Source: Escherichia phage ES
Sequence record: OR466728.1
Reading direction: 5' to 3' (one strand)
DNA: 48,315 nt
A model generated the notes under the pieces. That model had not been told where the DNA came from, searched no databases, and worked only from the letters and a program-made list of their open reading frames with translations. Position numbers and translations under genes: made by a program. Below are positions 25,730-48,315 of this stretch, in pieces. Positions within the stretch are counted from its first letter, which is position 1. Each line of letters opens with the position of its first letter.

Positions 25730-26167
25730 ATGAGTCATGTAATTACTGGTGTTATCCGTCGCGCTCCGTTCACCAAAGAAGGTCAGAATGCTAACGGAAC
25801 CTGGAAAATGTATGCAGTTGATTTAAGCGAGCGCTACAAGGACAAGGATGGTCAGGTACATTACAGTAACTATCGAGCTGTCTTCTTCGCAAAAGAATCA
25901 ATGCTTGCATGGTACGATGAGGCTTTTCAGGAAGGAAAAATTGTTAGCGTAAGCTGCGAAACTCTTGCTGTAGATGTTCGTGATAAAGATGGTAAGACGT
26001 ATGTAACCATTAACATGAACAACCCGCGACTTGAGTTTAGTCAGCGCGGTGATGGTATTCAGCAACAACAGCGCCAGCAGCCACAGCAGCAACAAAGCCA
26101 ACAACCACAGCAGAACCATCAGCAACCTAAGCAGCAGCAGAACTTCGACGATGACATCCCATTCTGA
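25730..26167 (+). CDS. ssb: single-stranded DNA-binding protein
   Basis: 145 aa, Gln/Pro-rich linker and C-terminal acidic tail ending DDDIPF, as in bacterial SSB. Confidence 0.8.
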   Translation: MSHVITGVIRRAPFTKEGQNANGTWKMYAVDLSERYKDKDGQVHYSNYRAVFFAKESMLAWYDEAFQEGKIVSVSCETLAVDVRDKDGKTYVTINMNNPRLEFSQRGDGIQQQQRQQPQQQQSQQPQQNHQQPKQQQNFDDDIPF

Positions 26168-26176
26168 TAAAAGATA

Positions 26177-26199
26177 AAGCCCCTTTCGGGGCTTTTTTT
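26177..26199. terminator. bidirectional terminator
   Basis: AAGCCCC/GGGGCTT stem flanked by A-run upstream and T-run downstream, between convergent genes. Confidence 0.6.
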
Positions 26200-28732
26200 A
26201 TGCGAGAGAAACTCTTGAATTTGCAAATATCATGGCATCCCTTTGGTTATCAAACTGCACAACAAAGTAATCAGCAAGACTTAACACCATACCAGTTAGT
26301 CCATCAAGGTTGATATGCAGGTTTGCAGTGCCAGATACTGAAGCCTGAGCAACTCCAAATGTATGAACCCACTTACCGCCCTCAGTGAACACTTTCCCTA
26401 AAGATGCAGTACCAAAAATACTGATAGCACCATCTGCACCACCTTGAATCCTGTTTGCAGAGATACCCCAAACGTACCATTTGCCGGAAGTTATATTAAA
26501 GCCACCATTTATCAATTCGTACTGAGCCGCACCAGCCAATTCGTAGTATCCAGATGATTGCGAGTGTATACCCCTTGTATCAGAACCTTCACTTGCCGAC
26601 CCTGTTCCACCAAAGTTGTTCCCACCAGTACCAAAAGGCCTCCTGACTAAAACAGTTCCGGAATCGGGATTAAAAACTCGACCCTTAGTAACATATCCTC
26701 TAACAGATAAGTCAGATGTACCCGTTATCTTGGCTGTCTGTGATACCAGTGACTCAACTATAACGTTTGATGTTGAAGAGCCATTCAGGTATGCATCCTT
26801 AGCAAAAATAATACTGTTCGAATCAAGAGAGAAACTTTGATGCCCATCAGCGTTATCAAACCTGCAACCGTAAGTAACAAGGTTTGAGTTAGACAACTCA
26901 ATGTTATTAATGTAGGAGTGCTCAGCAAAGAAAACAGACGTATCAATAAGCTTCAAAACCCTTGGTAGCTCAGCACCCTCACCTACGTTAATTGCCCCAC
27001 CAGTCGCTATTGCTTCAAACCATACATTTGACAAACCACAAGGCGAGGTCGGGCAATCTCCAGGTTTATTCTTTAACCTTATACCACCTCCAGCAGAGGC
27101 CTCCATTATTGAATCCCTAATCCACCATCCACCAATCCCTCCAGCACCAGGGTTAGTTGCACTACTTGTGCTTGTCGCATCTAGCATTACTGAATATTGA
27201 GAGATTGTATCTGAGTGGTACCCGTATAAAGTGTCCGCTCCTATATGCATTTCGTCATGAGCTTTGGCTCGATACCCGTAATTCGCATTTCTAATACTTA
27301 CGTTTCTGTAGGTATTTCCAATGTTGCCAGCATTTTTCCTTATACCAACATCCAGGTCATTGAAGTAAAGCCTATCCAATACAACCCTTCCAGCATAAGG
27401 GTCATCCGGGAATTGAAAGCCGTTATTACCTTGTATTGCAGTACCTGTAAACTGCAAATCCGATAAATGCTTTTGCCTCCAGTGCGGAACCGATAGCGTT
27501 GAGGTGAGTCCGGTTTCAAAAGGTTTAACACTTATTACGGTATTATATCCAGAGCCTGATATGTTCCTGCCAGCAAAGGAGTAGTTATTACTCTCATAAG
27601 TTCCCGGGCTTATAACTACCGACCCGCCATCGCCAGCGGCTTCTATTGCTGAAGATATTGAGCCGCTATAGCTTGATGTGCTTTTTGAATCTGTATTTAA
27701 AATTGATGACACCTCACCCTTTGAGTAAACATCAAGGTTGGTTCTTGCCACGGACTTATCTGCAATGTCTGAAAGATTCAATGATTTTTGAAACGTCTCG
27801 GATTTTGAGTAAACATCAAGCAACCCCCTAACCCTTGACGCGCTTGATCCACCAGTTGCAGCATCACCGCCAGGCAAGCTTAGTACTTCCCTTACATAAA
27901 AAACCCTAGATCCAGTCGCACCAGAAATTGTGACATCTGCAATCCTAAAATTTGAGTTTGACCCAGTAGACGGAGATAACCTTAATACTTTAGCCGAATT
28001 AACACCCCTAGTTGCAATAACATCAATACAAATAGGAGTTGTTGAAACCGGAAACATTGAACTAATTTCTTTTGGGGTGTTTAACATATTCCCAGGTGTG
28101 CACTGATAACGACCTCCGGAATAAAATTGCATTGTTTGCCAATCTAAAGAGGTAAGTAATGGCGTTGTCGTGCTACCTATTCCGTGATTAGCAAAGTAAG
28201 CAACAGCCGCTGTATTTCCAGCCGCATTTATTGCTTCAACCGTCCTGTTATATGAATTTTGTGCGTTAGTGCTTGCACCAACTGCGGTCGCTGCACTTTC
28301 AGCAGCAGCAATCTGACTAGCTAACGCCTCCGCAGCTCCGGTAGTTGACTGAGTTGCCAGTTGTTCAAAACGAGGCCAATCAAAAGTATCTTGACCAATA
28401 AATTGCAGTAGACTTTCAATAGAAGTCTCTTTTGACTGGTAGTAACGCAATGTTTCCGCAACATCCTGTGCCAACCCCTGAACAGTAATTCCATCATGAG
28501 CAAGAATTGCGTAACCAGTACCAGCGGGAACAGTTTCAGAACTTGGATTATAAACATTAACCTGAGTATCGCTGATGATTTCAGAGATGGTGTAAATTTT
28601 CAGAGGGCTGGTTTTGAAAATGATAGTAGCACCTACACGAATCAGCGTAAGCGGCGCTTTCCATGTTGTACCGACACCAGTTACCTCTCCATTCGCGGCC
28701 AGTGACGCTGTTCCTAAGTCATAAATTGCCAT
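26198..28732 (-). CDS. tail fibre / tailspike-like protein
   Basis: 844 aa from ATG 28732 (RBS GGAGA; ORF-track start 28762 is GTG); Gly/Ser/Thr/Asn-rich repetitive beta-type composition. Confidence 0.5.
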   Translation of the reverse strand: MAIYDLGTASLAANGEVTGVGTTWKAPLTLIRVGATIIFKTSPLKIYTISEIISDTQVNVYNPSSETVPAGTGYAILAHDGITVQGLAQDVAETLRYYQSKETSIESLLQFIGQDTFDWPRFEQLATQSTTGAAEALASQIAAAESAATAVGASTNAQNSYNRTVEAINAAGNTAAVAYFANHGIGSTTTPLLTSLDWQTMQFYSGGRYQCTPGNMLNTPKEISSMFPVSTTPICIDVIATRGVNSAKVLRLSPSTGSNSNFRIADVTISGATGSRVFYVREVLSLPGGDAATGGSSASRVRGLLDVYSKSETFQKSLNLSDIADKSVARTNLDVYSKGEVSSILNTDSKSTSSYSGSISSAIEAAGDGGSVVISPGTYESNNYSFAGRNISGSGYNTVISVKPFETGLTSTLSVPHWRQKHLSDLQFTGTAIQGNNGFQFPDDPYAGRVVLDRLYFNDLDVGIRKNAGNIGNTYRNVSIRNANYGYRAKAHDEMHIGADTLYGYHSDTISQYSVMLDATSTSSATNPGAGGIGGWWIRDSIMEASAGGGIRLKNKPGDCPTSPCGLSNVWFEAIATGGAINVGEGAELPRVLKLIDTSVFFAEHSYINNIELSNSNLVTYGCRFDNADGHQSFSLDSNSIIFAKDAYLNGSSTSNVIVESLVSQTAKITGTSDLSVRGYVTKGRVFNPDSGTVLVRRPFGTGGNNFGGTGSASEGSDTRGIHSQSSGYYELAGAAQYELINGGFNITSGKWYVWGISANRIQGGADGAISIFGTASLGKVFTEGGKWVHTFGVAQASVSGTANLHINLDGLTGMVLSLADYFVVQFDNQRDAMIFANSRVSLA

Positions 28733-28756
28733 TGTGTAAAGTCTCCATTTGTAAAA

Positions 28757-28774
28757 TAGCACGAATTGCTAAAG
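28757..28774 (+). promoter_or_regulatory. dyad box copy 6, orphan (plus orientation between two minus-strand genes)
   Basis: exact TAGCACGAATTGCTAAAG; no plus-strand gene or good -10 downstream; overlaps 5' leader of the tail fibre gene. Confidence 0.4.
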
Positions 28775-28797
28775 TTGATTGTAGCATCTTTGAGTCA

Positions 28798-28819
28798 TAA
28801 AAAAACCTCCCTTAGGAGG
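28798..28819 (-). terminator. rho-independent terminator (minus strand) after primase
   Basis: CCTCC/GGAGG stem, CTTA loop, 8 A on plus strand (T-run on minus). Confidence 0.55.
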
Positions 28820-29743
28820 TTAGTCTAGCAATTCGCTTGCCTTGTATATTCGCTTTCTTATGCCTGACTTGAAAAAATTATCATCATTTGGCATTACCAC
28901 ATCAAGATCGCGATCGTCAGCAACGGCGAGTAAATCAAAAGCGTGGCGAGTGCAAGCGATGCGTAACTTGTATTTTCTAAGCGCGTAAGCAACCATTTCC
29001 ATGTTGTAGCTGGAGTAGCAAACAATCACGCAGCGGTTGCCAGTAGCAAGATGAACGCGAATACCATCAATCCAATTATCGACAAGATAAGCGTACTCAT
29101 CATCTTTAAGGGAGCCAATAACAGACACTGACTGTCGAGTATAATCTTTTGCAGCATAGCTAACATCTCCTTCCTCATTGATAAACATTACATTGCACAT
29201 TTCTTCTGATATGCCGTCACTATAAGCCATAAAGCACGGGACAGCATGGATTAATTCACCTGATTTTGTTCTACCAACATCAAATCCAAACTCGCTATAA
29301 ATACCCTCGTATGTACTGAGTGGAGTTGATTCTACTCTTTCCGTCCTTTCCATTATCTCCAGGCATCTTTCGTGGTCAATCTGTGCTCCCATTTTGTAGA
29401 GCTGGGCTCTTGATGCTTGCTTGTTTGCCTTGTTAACAACTTCAACCGGGATGAGGTTCAGCCACTCACCTAGAGTGTCAATACATTCACTGAATGACTC
29501 ACCCCGCATCTTCATGACCCAAATAATCCCATCACCTGACCCGCACTGGTTGCAGATAATCCCACCGTCACCATCCTCACTAACCTTGTTTGTCCAGCGA
29601 GCGCGGTCAACTCCTCCACAATAAATACATGGCTTATGCTTTTTTGTCTGGAAGAATTTTGGGTCTGCGCCGCAAATGTTTATAAGCGCCTTATCCCACA
29701 GTCCGCGCATTCTTGGTAAAACTTCTTTCTTGTCGTAGTGCAT
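28820..29743 (-). CDS. DNA primase (zinc-ribbon type, putative)
   Basis: 307 aa; N-terminal CIYCGG...CNQCG zinc-binding motif; adjacent to helicase region. Confidence 0.55.
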   Translation of the reverse strand: MHYDKKEVLPRMRGLWDKALINICGADPKFFQTKKHKPCIYCGGVDRARWTNKVSEDGDGGIICNQCGSGDGIIWVMKMRGESFSECIDTLGEWLNLIPVEVVNKANKQASRAQLYKMGAQIDHERCLEIMERTERVESTPLSTYEGIYSEFGFDVGRTKSGELIHAVPCFMAYSDGISEEMCNVMFINEEGDVSYAAKDYTRQSVSVIGSLKDDEYAYLVDNWIDGIRVHLATGNRCVIVCYSSYNMEMVAYALRKYKLRIACTRHAFDLLAVADDRDLDVVMPNDDNFFKSGIRKRIYKASELLD

Positions 29744-30288: not shown

Positions 30289-30306
30289 TAGCACTTTTTG
30301 TTAAAC
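30289..30306 (+). promoter_or_regulatory. dyad box copy 7 (TAGCACTTTTTGTTAAAC) in divergent region
   Basis: TATTAT about 21-22 nt downstream; helicase ATG 83 nt downstream; 14 nt from the ATG of the divergent HTH gene. Confidence 0.5.
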
Positions 30307-30371
30307 AATAGGTTCGATAATTGATATTATACAGCAATGCAACGAACTAACAAACTGTCAGGATACTTAAA

Positions 30372-33300
30372 ATGCTTCCAGTAGAGCGCTTAGTGGCAAA
30401 CTTTGATCAAGAGAAAATCAAACAGATTCAGAAAGATTACCAGTTTGGAGACATAACTCCTTACGAATTCCAGTGTGTAACATTTGACGCAATTGGTAAG
30501 GCTATTGGTAAGTACGAGGCTCCATTCATCGCAGACCTGTCTGTATCTGCTGGTAAAACAATAATTCTTGCCATGATTGGGAAAAGAATGGAGCAACTTG
30601 GACTTCCTTATATGGTACTGTCTCGCCAGTCAGAGATTATCAGCCAGAACGCAGAGGAACTCCGTAACTTCGGTATCCGTAATAGCGTCTATTGCGCTGG
30701 ACTTAACGTTAAATCAGTTTACTACCCAACCATAGTGGCTAGTGAGGGTACAGCTGCCAATGGCCTGTTTAAGGGGCTTGGTGACTATGTTCCTGCTGTT
30801 ATCGCGATAGATGAGTGCTTAACTGGAGACACGATGATAACCACCGATTCAGGGATGATGAGGATTGATAGCGAAGACCTTATCAATCATAAAATAAAAT
30901 GCATAAACGAAAGCACTGGTGATTACTTCTATCATAAGCCAAAAAGAGTTTTTACTAATGGTGTAAGACATGTATCATCAATTAAATTAGAAAGCGGAGA
31001 GGAAATAAAATGCACGAGTACACACAAACTTTATTCGAACGGCTGCTGGGTAGGAGCGGGAAAACTTCGTATTGGGATGAATCTGTCGCTAGACGGCTCG
31101 CAGGACAAATTTACGAAAAAGCTCCTGCGTGCAAGTGTGGCTGTGGTGAAAAAGTTATGCCGCATTCAAGCAAGGGGTTAGGCGTACTTCTTAAGAACCC
31201 TTTCGATTTCTATTTGGATTACAGAACGGGGCATCATAATTCAACCGTCAACCCATCAATGGAGGTTGATGACTTTTTACATCAAAACATTCTTGCGGCA
31301 ATGGCTGGTGATGGTTGCTTGATTAAAAATACAGAAAAAGGAACGCATAGGCTATCTTGGAATATGGGAAATAAGGAGCACGCACTAAGCAAGGTTGAAA
31401 GGTTTGCAAAACTAAACCCTAGATACAGGGAGAAGAAAAACCCTGGATTTGGCGACAACTGGTTTTGCGTATCAACATCATGTACGAAAGTTCTGGATTC
31501 ATATGCTGATAAGTACGGAAATTCTAAGGATGGTTACGATATTGGAAAGATATGCAGAGAGCTTGATCCAGTTGGTTGGGCTGCTTACTTTGGTGATGAT
31601 GGTCATTGCACTGTAAGCTCAGGGAAGAGGGTTGTAGAAATCCACACCGAATCATTTAGCAGGCGTGAAGTTCAATCAGTAGTTGATGCGCTAATAGCAT
31701 TTATTGCTAATGACGGAGTTAATGTTAGAAGCTATATTGGCGGCAAGAAAAAGAGAGAGCTTTACTCAGTATCAATAACAACGAGGTCGGCACAAGATGA
31801 GTTTTTTAAGAGAATTAGTAAGCACATGGAAAATGGCGTGGAATACAAAATCAAGCAAAATTAAAGACATCTCACCCATTGGCAAGGAACTTGTTTGGGA
31901 TATAGAGATGCCTGAGCACCATAATTTCATTGCTGACGGGGTCGTGGCACATAATTGCCACATGGTGGACCATATGGATATCGTAGAAGCTGAAGAGAAT
32001 GAGGAAACATTCGAGCAGATGAGCACGAAGAAGGGTGAGATGGTCTTTAAGGATGGTGTGAATACCGGGCTTCTTGGCACTGGTCGCGCGCAATACACGT
32101 TAATCATTACCGAAATGAAGCGTCGATGCAAGGAGAAGTACGGTCGCGAACTTCGTATCTTTGGGTTAACTGGTAGCCCGTACCGTAACAACGACCACAT
32201 TGTAGTTAGTAACCCAAATGTCCGTGGATTCTGGCGCAAAACTGTAATGCAAGTGCCAACCAGCTACCTTGTTGACTTGGGGTTCGTTGTTCCTACTGTC
32301 TACGGTGAAGTTGGTGATTTGGGCTACGACCTTAGTGAGTTCACTCCTGATGGAAGTGATGGGGTTAAGGACTTCAGCAAGAAAGAAATGGATGCGATGG
32401 CTGCAAAGATTCACGAAAACCAAACGATGACACAAAAGATAATGGGATTTGCTGCTAGGTTTATGGAAACAAGGAATGCTGCATTGGTAACTTGCGCTGG
32501 CAAACAGCATTGCGAGGAGGCGGCAGCCGCACTTCCAGAAGGTGTTACTTGGGCGATAGTTACCAACTCCACTGGTGATAAGAAGCGTAGAGAGATACTT
32601 GAGAAGGCAGCCAGCGGAGAATATAAGTTCATATTTCAGATTGGTTGCCTCACAACTGGCGTAAACTGCCCCCCGTGGGATACAAGCATTATCCTGAGGA
32701 AGGTTGGTAGCATTACTCTACTCATTCAGTTGCTTGGTCGTGGTATGCGTATCCTTAAGAAGAAGCACAAAGAAGCTGGAATGGTAAAAGATGACCATGT
32801 TGTTCTTGATTTTGCCGGGACGCTTGACGATATGGCAGAACTCTACTTCGACCCAATTATAGAAGAGGTTCAGGACCAGAAGTTTAAGTCATCCAGGAAA
32901 GGGGGTGATGAACCAAGAATTTGCCCAGCATGTTCTTATGAGAATTCTCCTTTCGCACGGCGCTGTAATAATGTGATTGACGGTAAACGATGCGAGCATT
33001 TTTTTCAGTTCCGTCTTTGCGAAGATATTGAGGACCCGCAGACGAAAGTTATCGTTAAGAAAGGTTGCGGAGAGAAAAATGACGTTGCAGCAAAGAACTG
33101 CCGCTGCTGCGGAGAGATGCTGATAGACCCAAATGCAAAGCTATCTGGAAAAATGTATCGGAAAGGGGACTGGTTGAGAGTTTATGACTTCAAGATTGGG
33201 TTGACAAAAAACCAGTCAGGGATCGTTGCTTCATATGAGGTAATGGCTCATAGTGGAGATAAGTTCCGAGCTTATGAAACATTCTTCCCGGAGTCAGACC

Positions 33301-33506
33301 ATCGTGTTTGTTCTGTCAAATGGAAGGCGTTTTGCTCAACTCACATCGAGAACAGGACTGAGGCTTTTAGGATTGGCAGATTGCGTAATGCTAAAATGAT
33401 TATGACAAATGCACATCTTTTCCGTGCGCCGCTAAGGATTACGCACCGCAAGAATCAGAAGTCGCAAGATATTATCGCCAACAAATCATTTACGATGGAG
33501 GATTGA
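30372..33506 (+). CDS. SF2 DExH-box DNA helicase, interrupted by an intein (exteins 30372-30815 and 31956-33506)
   Basis: Walker A SVSAGKT; motif II DE|CH restored on excision; three track ORFs (30372, 31010, 31797) belong to one gene. Confidence 0.75.
30816..31955 (+). mobile_element. intein with LAGLIDADG homing-endonuclease domain (1140 nt, 380 codons)
   Basis: starts CLTGDTMI, block B TSTHKL, LAGLIDADG-like ILAAMAGDGCL and AAYFGDDGHC, ends NFIADGVVAHN before +1 Cys; endonuclease domain is in a different frame. Confidence 0.8.
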
Positions 33507-33507
33507 T

Positions 33508-33927
33508 ATGAAAATCACAGACAAAGGTGATTACCTCGAGTTCTATGGCGGACCGGTGAAGTCATGCCCAAAGGAAGACGATGAACAAATCTTCTGCTCT
33601 GATTGGGTGAAATACAACTATCCGCAGATTGTTTACTGGCACACGATTAACGAAAATAAAAAGAGCATTGGTCAAGCAATAAAAGACCAAGCCAAGGGGC
33701 TTCTCAAAGGTGTGTCAGACTGCTTATTTCTGATACCTGAGTCATTGCGTGGCGGTTATCCATTTGGCGCCATAGAGTTAAAGAGGGCTGGTAAAACGCA
33801 AGCAAGCCCAGTTAGCAATGAGCAAAAGTCATTCCTAAAAAGCGTAAGGGAATCAGGCGGTTTCGCAGCGGTGGCTTATGGAAGAGAGGGTTTTCTTGCG
33901 GCATTCGCAGAGATGATAAGAAAATAG
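33508..33927 (+). CDS. VRR-NUC-like nuclease (putative)
   Basis: 139 aa; ...D...IELKRAGK... PD-(D/E)XK-like core; RBS GGAGG. Confidence 0.45.
   Translation: MKITDKGDYLEFYGGPVKSCPKEDDEQIFCSDWVKYNYPQIVYWHTINENKKSIGQAIKDQAKGLLKGVSDCLFLIPESLRGGYPFGAIELKRAGKTQASPVSNEQKSFLKSVRESGGFAAVAYGREGFLAAFAEMIRK

Positions 33928-48160: not shown

Positions 48161-48315
<155 letters not shown>

Follow-up and report, generated by a model that had tools for sequence, protein, structure and literature searches.

A probable split intein in the helicase of a Drexlerviridae phage, with a LAGLIDADG homing endonuclease gene dual-coded with both halves

The genome of Escherichia phage ES (sequence record OR466728.1; the whole stretch of 48,315 nucleotides analysed is referred to as the window) encodes a helicase interrupted by an intein, and a LAGLIDADG endonuclease lying between the two splicing ends is encoded in a reading frame different from theirs. 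How is such an arrangement to be read? A first-pass annotation of this DNA described two compensating frameshifts, and offered homopolymer sequencing error, decay of the intein with inactivation of the helicase, or ribosomal frameshifting as their cause. The current analysis supports a reading that this annotation had overlooked. The locus is very probably a naturally split intein that harbours a LAGLIDADG homing endonuclease (HE) gene, dual-coded and translated on its own, that is, a 'fractured gene' in the helicase of a Drexlerviridae phage.

Three plus-strand open reading frames (ORFs) are present at the locus in the ORF listing. The first (30372-31181, frame 0) encodes the N-terminal part of the helicase and the N half of the intein (IntN); past ...AIDE it continues with CLTGDT... 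(intein block A) and later CTSTH (block B), and it ends at a TAG stop. The second (31010-31864) lies in the -1 frame, called frame 2 in the first-pass annotation, and encodes a LAGLIDADG protein of 284 residues. The third (31797-33506) is again in frame 0 and comprises the C half of the intein (IntC), whose blocks F and G end in ...VWDIEMPEHHNFIADGVVAHN/CHMVDH with Cys+1 following the slash, and then the C-terminal part of the helicase. Each ORF has its own start and stop, and consecutive ORFs have 172 nt (31010-31181) and 68 nt (31797-31864) in common. These two overlaps are what had been taken for compensating frameshifts. The frame order 0, -1, 0 was itself described correctly: frame 0 ends at 31179-31181, the -1 frame alone is open for the LAGLIDADG protein and runs without a stop over 30986-31864, and frame 0 restarts at the ATG at 31797. 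The features of the locus are given below, a slash within a protein motif marking the intein-extein junction or insertion site and SD standing for Shine-Dalgarno.

30372..30815, plus strand: N-extein, the first 148 residues of an SF2 helicase, ending in ...AIDE, the first half of motif II (DE/CH).
30816..31181, plus strand: IntN, N half of the split intein, 121 residues followed by the TAG stop at 31179-31181.
30816-30818 and 31011-31025, plus strand: IntN landmarks, Cys1 and block B (C-T-S-T-H) respectively.
After the IntN core, plus strand: basic tail of IntN, 27 residues, SQDKFTKKLLRASVAVVKKLCRIQARG.
30996..31002, plus strand: SD-like GGAGAGG, 7 nt 5' of the endonuclease ATG and within the IntN codons S-G-E-E.
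31010..31864, plus strand: HE gene in the -1 frame, 284 residues, I-SceI-type double-motif LAGLIDADG, TAA stop at 31862-31864.
31130-31147, 31289-31321 and 31577-31606, plus strand: endonuclease motifs CxCGCG, motif 1 (ILAAMAGDGCL) and motif 2 (WAAYFGDDGH) respectively, with M..G.EYK at the C-terminus.
31010..31181, plus strand: 5' dual-coding overlap of 172 nt, IntN core after block B and tail (frame 0) with endonuclease residues 1-57 (-1 frame).
31783..31786, plus strand: SD-like GAGG, 10 nt 5' of the IntC ATG.
31797..31955, plus strand: IntC, C half of the split intein, 53 residues, MSFLRELVSTWKMAWNTK...VWDIEMPEHHNFIADGVVAHN, with blocks F and G and His-Asn at 31950-31955.
31797..31864, plus strand: 3' dual-coding overlap of 68 nt, endonuclease C-terminus KHMENGVEYKIKQN up to its stop with IntC N-terminus ..TWKMAWNTKSSKIK.
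31956..33506, plus strand: C-extein, beginning with Cys+1 (31956-31958) and HMVDH..., 516 residues of helicase and the stop codon.
30791..32444, plus strand: tract of low divergence from an independent phage assembly, covering the cassette, the last 25 nt of the N-extein and ~490 nt of the C-extein.

The presence of an intein within a helicase together with a LAGLIDADG endonuclease, as first annotated, is borne out by the ORF content and by Pfam. The LAGLIDADG_2 family matches the second ORF above its cut-off and Helicase_C is assigned to the third, while the Intein_splicing matches on the first and third ORFs are weak and fall below the family cut-off. Over this part of the window the genome of Escherichia phage AN_ECEAS (PP944860.1; Drexlerviridae, Braunvirinae) has exactly the same sequence (100% identity). 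In that record the annotation of the corresponding region (26012-29146, equivalent to 30372-33506 of the window) is incomplete: the N fragment is a 'hypothetical protein', the 284-residue endonuclease ORF is absent, and the 'DNA helicase' coding sequence starts at a non-conserved Met (window 31833) and not at 31797.

The splicing ends are intact, as had been noted from the sequence, with Cys1, TxxH, His-Asn and Cys+1 all in place; Cys1, CTSTH, VWDIEMPEHHNF and VVAHN/C can be read in the window. Across the loci described below, Cys1, TxxH, a DIEMP stretch, an HNF motif, His-Asn and Cys+1 are invariant. When IntN and IntC are joined, they align end to end with a contiguous DnaX mini-intein (E-value 2e-23). 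Removal in silico of IntN (121 residues) and IntC (53 residues) leaves 148 + 516 = 664 residues of helicase, which align without a single gap and with 92% identity to the intein-free helicase of phage P818, also of 664 residues; the N-extein is collinear with residues 1-148 of the latter. The extein junction AIDE/CHMVDH lies inside helicase motif II, and the intein-free site of phage P818 or Rtp reads ccgttatagctatagatgag/tgccacatggtcgatcac. IntN and IntC are predicted to splice in trans and so to give the ligated helicase. Rfam gave no match at E <= 1 within 30300-32300, and hence no group I intron; the flanks encode HINT blocks.

Related loci have been identified by tblastn, protein searches and profile scans of viral and metagenome collections (IMG/VR, ENA, Logan, NCBI and JGI contigs). 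Three ORFs arranged in the relative frames 0, -1, 0 recur in about 20 non-identical loci, with HE identities of 34-100%. The carriers include phage isolates of E. coli and Pectobacterium, contigs resembling E. coli phages, and viral and metagenome contigs; IMG/VR gave three further loci with a single-protein query. Five Pectobacterium phages carry the cassette (HE 42% identical, IntN 55-56%), and there the three ORFs are annotated as hypothetical, homing endonuclease and DNA helicase. In a collection of 5.8 billion proteins the HE homologues are stand-alone proteins in 20 of 20 cases, ranging from 167 to 294 residues. An exhaustive search of a library of 1.84 billion proteins with IntN returned, among the ~30 best clusters at 50% identity, almost exclusively proteins of 236-313 residues, and in nearly all of these clusters the match ends no more than ~15 residues from the C-terminus. 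About 45 other Drexlerviridae records match the exteins only and are therefore without the cassette.

This recurrence bears upon the suspicion of a sequencing or assembly error at homopolymer runs, under which the true sequence would be a canonical in-frame intein. Runs of A do exist near both junctions (31116-31120, 31847-31850 and 31857-31860), as the first-pass annotation had pointed out, and the window looks like a raw assembly, ending in a poly-G artefact of ~150 nt. No shift occurs at these runs, however, and the runs themselves are not conserved in the ~20 divergent loci, which come from unrelated projects and have the same frames. The sequence is identical in PP944860.1, and an independent assembly (GCA_021149145.1) differs from it by 57 substitutions and not one indel over the 2029 nt compared (97.2% identical). 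Further, frame 0 has 10 stop codons, not one, between the block-B Cys codon (31011) and 31835, and a single indel cannot restore an in-frame endonuclease. The likelihood of such an error is practically negligible.

Selection on the three ORFs has been measured as the mean pairwise nucleotide diversity at each codon position, given here for frame-0 positions 1, 2 and 3. In the portion coding for IntN only (0.37, 0.36 and 0.50) and in that coding for IntC only (0.21, 0.10 and 0.56) the diversity is highest at position 3. In blocks coding for HE only it peaks, at 0.50-0.63, at frame-0 position 2, which is position 3 of the -1 frame. These patterns show purifying selection on all three ORFs. Within the 5' overlap, the IntN core after block B behaves like frame 0. 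The overlap segment encoding LRASVAVVKKLC and APACKCGCGEKV (0.22, 0.27 and 0.26) and that encoding WKMAWNTKS and MENGVEYKI (0.14, 0.24 and 0.22) have low diversity at all three positions, as dual coding predicts. The W.T motif of the latter segment is found also in a DnaX mini-intein devoid of endonuclease and therefore belongs to the intein itself. The conserved basic tail of IntN (LLRASAAVVKKL) and the head of IntC (M.L..L.ELK.TW..AWNTK) may possibly constitute a dedicated association module.

A decaying intein or pseudogene is hardly compatible with these patterns. According to this explanation, frameshift mutations have killed the intein and left the helicase inactive, the phage managing without it or borrowing a helicase of the host. 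The interruption of the intein frame speaks for it, as do the GenBank calls, in which the N fragment is only hypothetical and the HE ORF is omitted. Against it, ~20 lineages down to ~35% identity have kept all the splicing residues, the two LAGLIDADG motifs and the motifs of the exteins, the codon-position pattern is that of purifying selection on IntN, IntC and HE, and isolated phages are among the carriers. No disrupted HE and no disrupted intein half was seen among the ~20 loci. The decay proposed by the first-pass annotation is contradicted by this evidence and has, in our estimate, only a very small chance of being correct.

The starts of the second and third ORFs provide the evidence on separate translation. 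The codon at which the HE ATG (31010) lies is the same in each of 20 loci, and this ATG is composed of the wobble A of the preceding codon and the TG of the block-B Cys codon. In these loci the -1 frame has 1-4 stops within the 26 codons before this ATG and none after it. Over the upstream helicase and IntN the -1 frame has 210 stops in 2239 codons (about one per 10.7 codons), and none across the overlap of 54-62 codons in 11 of 11 lineages; on resampling of synonymous frame-0 codons, the probability that this frame stays open is 0.0006-0.09 per lineage. A motif of the type GGnGAGG precedes the HE ATG in most lineages (duplex free energy -5 to -13 kcal/mol). The conserved ATG of IntC (window 31797) stands either 13 or 16 codons 5' of the codon for Ala in AWNTK; the 20 loci have a stop in frame 0 between 1 and 8 codons ahead of it, and nearly all lineages have a GAGG- or AAGGA-type motif 6-12 nt 5' of it. 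Between the block-B Cys codon and AWNTK, frame 0 is closed in the phage loci by 6-22 stops. The ATGs at 31010 and 31797 are accordingly the candidate start codons.

Two other ATGs were considered and rejected. The GenBank start of IntC at 31833 is doubtful because its Met is not conserved, being replaced by T, K or Q in five loci (L020, L021, L025, L028 and L030), and it probably lies too far downstream. The internal ATG at 31157, which has a GGTGA SD motif and gives the 235-residue versions of gene callers, was not accepted as the family-wide start of HE; its Met is absent in many lineages, and it was set aside because every locus has the ATG at 31010 and the -1 frame upstream stays free of stops.

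Programmed recoding would require a -1 shift within 31010-31181 and a +1 shift within 31797-31864 to give a single, cis-splicing precursor of helicase, intein and endonuclease. Such shifts would cancel each other, the relative frames are conserved in all loci, and the window has a G_AAA_AAG at 31115-31121 that is similar to A_AAA_AAG, the -1 frameshift heptamer of dnaX, and in register with frame 0. This heptamer is lineage-specific, however, and no slippery heptamer is common to all loci: the overlap is devoid of one in 7 of 20, and many lineages lack the KK codons. No stable RNA fold was found 3' of the G_AAA_AAG of the window (z = -0.69 against shuffled sequence). The conserved ATGs and SD-like motifs of HE and IntC, with stops just upstream, are needed by separate cistrons and not by a fusion, and if two successive frameshifts were needed, very little would be made of a helicase that is conserved and belongs to the replication module. 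The conservation of the frames is explained by the overlaps, which lock them. These observations contradict the frameshifting suggested initially, and recoding is considered highly unlikely.

Some considerations weigh against the favoured reading, a split intein whose endonuclease is translated on its own. Its splicing in trans, the activity of the endonuclease and the start codons are predictions from the sequence. As the overlaps lock the frames, the conservation of the latter is not independent evidence for or against frameshifting. The near-dnaX G_AAA_AAG (31115-31121) lies in the overlap, and slight incidental -1 slippage there, leading to an IntN-HE fusion, is conceivable. The apparent dual constraint in the tail of IntN may simply follow, passively, from the CxCGCGEK motif; AAVVK is paired with CGCGEK also in a cyanobacterial DnaX intein, where frame 0 serves as no more than a linker. 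Over its first ~29 residues HE evolves as a hitch-hiker of frame 0, with only the ATG and the avoidance of stops visible; statistical support exists for their probable translation.

The product of the second ORF is an I-SceI-type double-motif LAGLIDADG endonuclease. It matches PF03161 (LAGLIDADG_2) with 29.2 bits against a cut-off of 25, as do 18 of 18 members of the family, and the GDG (100-102) and GDDG (195-198) motifs are invariant in the HE family. By sequence the closest solved structures are I-WcaI and I-SceI, and the intein-borne PI-SceI and PI-PfuI match more weakly. An AlphaFold2 model (pLDDT 86) predicts an I-SceI-like fold, with I-WcaI (6x1j) and I-SceI as the best PDB matches at target-normalised TM-scores of 0.67-0.70; the N-terminal extension of ~60 residues that carries the CxCGCG motif is modelled with moderate confidence (pLDDT 60-83). 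Cleavage of the element-free allele is the predicted activity of this enzyme.

Taken as a split intein with a free-standing endonuclease gene, the locus would function as follows. Three proteins would be translated separately from one stretch of DNA, namely the N-extein with IntN, the free-standing HE, and IntC with the C-extein; the HE would start at an ATG built into the block-B Cys-Thr codons and its gene would overlap both intein halves. After translation IntN and IntC would associate and splice in trans, yielding the intact helicase of 664 residues. The HE would cut intein-free helicase alleles of co-infecting phages near ...GATGAG/TGCCAC..., and repair would copy the whole cassette into the cleaved allele (homing).

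The halves might also associate without splicing, as a non-covalent dimerisation module that holds the pieces of the helicase together. Split-intein halves bind tightly, which counts for this alternative, and the formation of the peptide bond is a prediction here. On the other hand, mere association does not require invariant Cys1, TxxH, His-Asn and Cys+1, and a retained HINT domain of ~170 residues within motif II (DE/CH) would probably disrupt the ATPase site. Association without splicing is regarded as improbable.

Evidence on the mobility of the element comes from the comparison with GCA_021149145.1, a third party (TPA) assembly labelled E. coli whose contig of 34.8 kb is evidently a related phage genome. 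The two sequences differ by 11.7% upstream of the helicase and by 11.5% in the N-extein. In the cassette (30816-31955) the divergence falls to 0.35% and remains at 0.45% in the next 445 nt of the C-extein, rising to 9.0% in the C-extein past 32401. The final 5' difference is at 30790, 25 nt ahead of the insertion site, and forms a sharp mosaic boundary, while the tract of low divergence (~0.4%) reaches ~32444. The pattern of the tract 30791-32444 is as expected of recent homing with asymmetric co-conversion.

Another locus (L030, 924-2649, protein P0029) has the same cassette of IntN, HE and IntC at DE/CH in what is apparently a different SF2 helicase, whose downstream part reads ...HNCHGITPT...SAT (C-extein ...HNCHGITPTIQK...LGLSATPYR). 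This suggests that the element has moved between helicase families with a common motif II sequence, and extein switching would be indicated.

The arrangement has parallels in several known systems. Dassa et al. 2009 (NAR 37:2560, PMC2677866) described 'fractured genes', e.g. gp41-1, NrdJ-1 and IMPDH-1, in which the halves of a split intein are separated by a free-standing homing endonuclease gene (HEG). The 3' end of the HEG overlaps the start of IntC by 6-69 bp in these genes, the HEGs are GIY-YIG or Vsr-like (EDxHD), and the word LAGLIDADG does not occur in that paper (PMC2677866). The present locus is alike in that a host gene of DNA metabolism is broken into adjacent N and C ORFs bearing IntN and IntC, in the separate HEG between the halves with a 3' overlap of 68 bp with IntC, and in its phage origin. 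It differs in that the phage HEG is of the I-SceI-type LAGLIDADG class, overlaps IntN as well by ~170 nt and starts inside block B, and in its host protein, an SF2 DExH helicase broken within motif II in place of the gp41 (DnaB-like) helicase. Further, the cassette is found here in cultured enterobacterial phages; to our knowledge, ocean metagenomes are the only source of the classical fractured genes.

Among contiguous inteins, those of cyanobacterial DnaX (pol III tau), inserted at IDE/CHML, are the nearest to the phage element in the splicing domain. In a cyanobacterial DnaX (locus L031, 1615-2676; GCA_041738045.1, JBGSQN010000085.1), a contiguous intein of 452 residues has a LAGLIDADG ORF of 353 residues nested in the -1 frame. 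The nested ORF shares 24% identity with the HE of the window (E-value 5e-14) and contains a duplicated repeat 'PLC.CGCGE(K/R)LEIP'; the in-frame 'linker' of the intein over it looks like non-functional read-through sequence. The phage and DnaX inteins have homologous splicing domains (34-39% identity over the IntN core) and the same insertion context, IDE/CHM in the P-loop Walker B or motif II. With L031 the phage element shares also the nested LAGLIDADG ORF in the same -1 frame, the CxCGCGE(K/R) motif, and the overlap of the C-terminal M.YK of the endonuclease with the W.T motif of the intein. The host proteins and organisms differ, and the frame of L031 stays open, giving a contiguous, cis-splicing intein of 452 residues, whereas the phage frame is closed by 6-22 stops and has a new ATG. 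The phage element looks like a split counterpart of the DnaX intein family, and we infer that the direction of evolution was from the contiguous to the split form. A bioRxiv preprint (10.64898/2026.09.14.751524, September 2026) concerns, by its title, an out-of-frame HE in a dnaX intein; in its text the term 'split intein' occurs 0 times. A DnaX N-fragment of 232 residues (protein P0096) ends shortly past the IntN core (...MKILAPISQSKHKQNNL) and could be either a split DnaX intein or just a truncated gene call.

Inteins of actinobacteriophages with homing endonucleases (HENs) in another frame or on the opposite strand have been reported by Gosselin, Arsenault & Gogarten (bioRxiv 10.1101/2025.01.02.630785). 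Their cases comprise an in-frame HNH, an antisense LAGLIDADG, an antisense Vsr-like HEN and a frame-3 EndoVII-like HEN, with a continuous intein frame; the proposed origin is the invasion of an intein by a free-standing HEG, and annotation pipelines are said often to miss such elements. The present case is similar in that the endonuclease and the splicing domain of a phage intein do not share a reading frame, but none of those cases is a sense-strand, out-of-frame LAGLIDADG inside a split intein. With canonical bifunctional LAGLIDADG inteins such as PI-SceI and PI-PfuI it shares a HINT domain and a double-motif LAGLIDADG nuclease at one locus and the homing life style. Those are single polypeptides with the nuclease in frame; here there are three polypeptides with the HE in the -1 frame, and the nuclease is nearest to the intron-type I-SceI and I-WcaI (Pfam LAGLIDADG_2). 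The authors of a 2024 paper were aware of no inteins reported in coliphages, which is that paper's own, unverified statement.

The gene directly 3' of the helicase (33508-33927) is a VRR_NUC-family nuclease in related loci (Pfam PF08774). The order primase, small Cro-like protein, helicase and VRR_NUC is kept in loci of the E. coli phage type (L008, L010), and the core of primase, helicase and VRR_NUC is found again in two others (L012, L013). A promoter and terminator scan gave 10 promoter-like sites, with 7.7 expected. At the end of the window, 48162-48315 is a run of ~154 nt of G with a single A, typical of the no-signal artefact that two-colour Illumina chemistry leaves where a contig ends; this makes the window a raw assembly, as compared with the curated GenBank record of 48,081 nt.

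We give about an even chance to the proposition that these loci form a previously undescribed and widespread family, comprising split inteins in the SF2 helicases of enterobacterial siphophages with an I-SceI-type LAGLIDADG endonuclease dual-coded with both halves, as a split sister of the contiguous cyanobacterial DnaX intein. Such loci are easily mistaken for frameshifted pseudogenes by pipelines and readers alike. The system is tractable in cultured phages of E. coli and Pectobacterium, in which trans-splicing, homing from one co-infecting phage to another and the cost or benefit of a fractured helicase would be measurable, and protein engineering may gain from it a new natural pair of split-intein halves with Cys+1 at the junction. 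The origin of split inteins is a long-standing question, and here one family occurs in both contiguous (DnaX) and split (phage) forms, which makes a model of endonuclease invasion followed by fracture directly testable. If the proposition is true, the pair of DnaX and phage inteins would capture the transition from contiguous to split directly: an endonuclease in another frame would render the in-frame linker dispensable, and a stop together with a restart codon would convert cis-splicing into trans-splicing.

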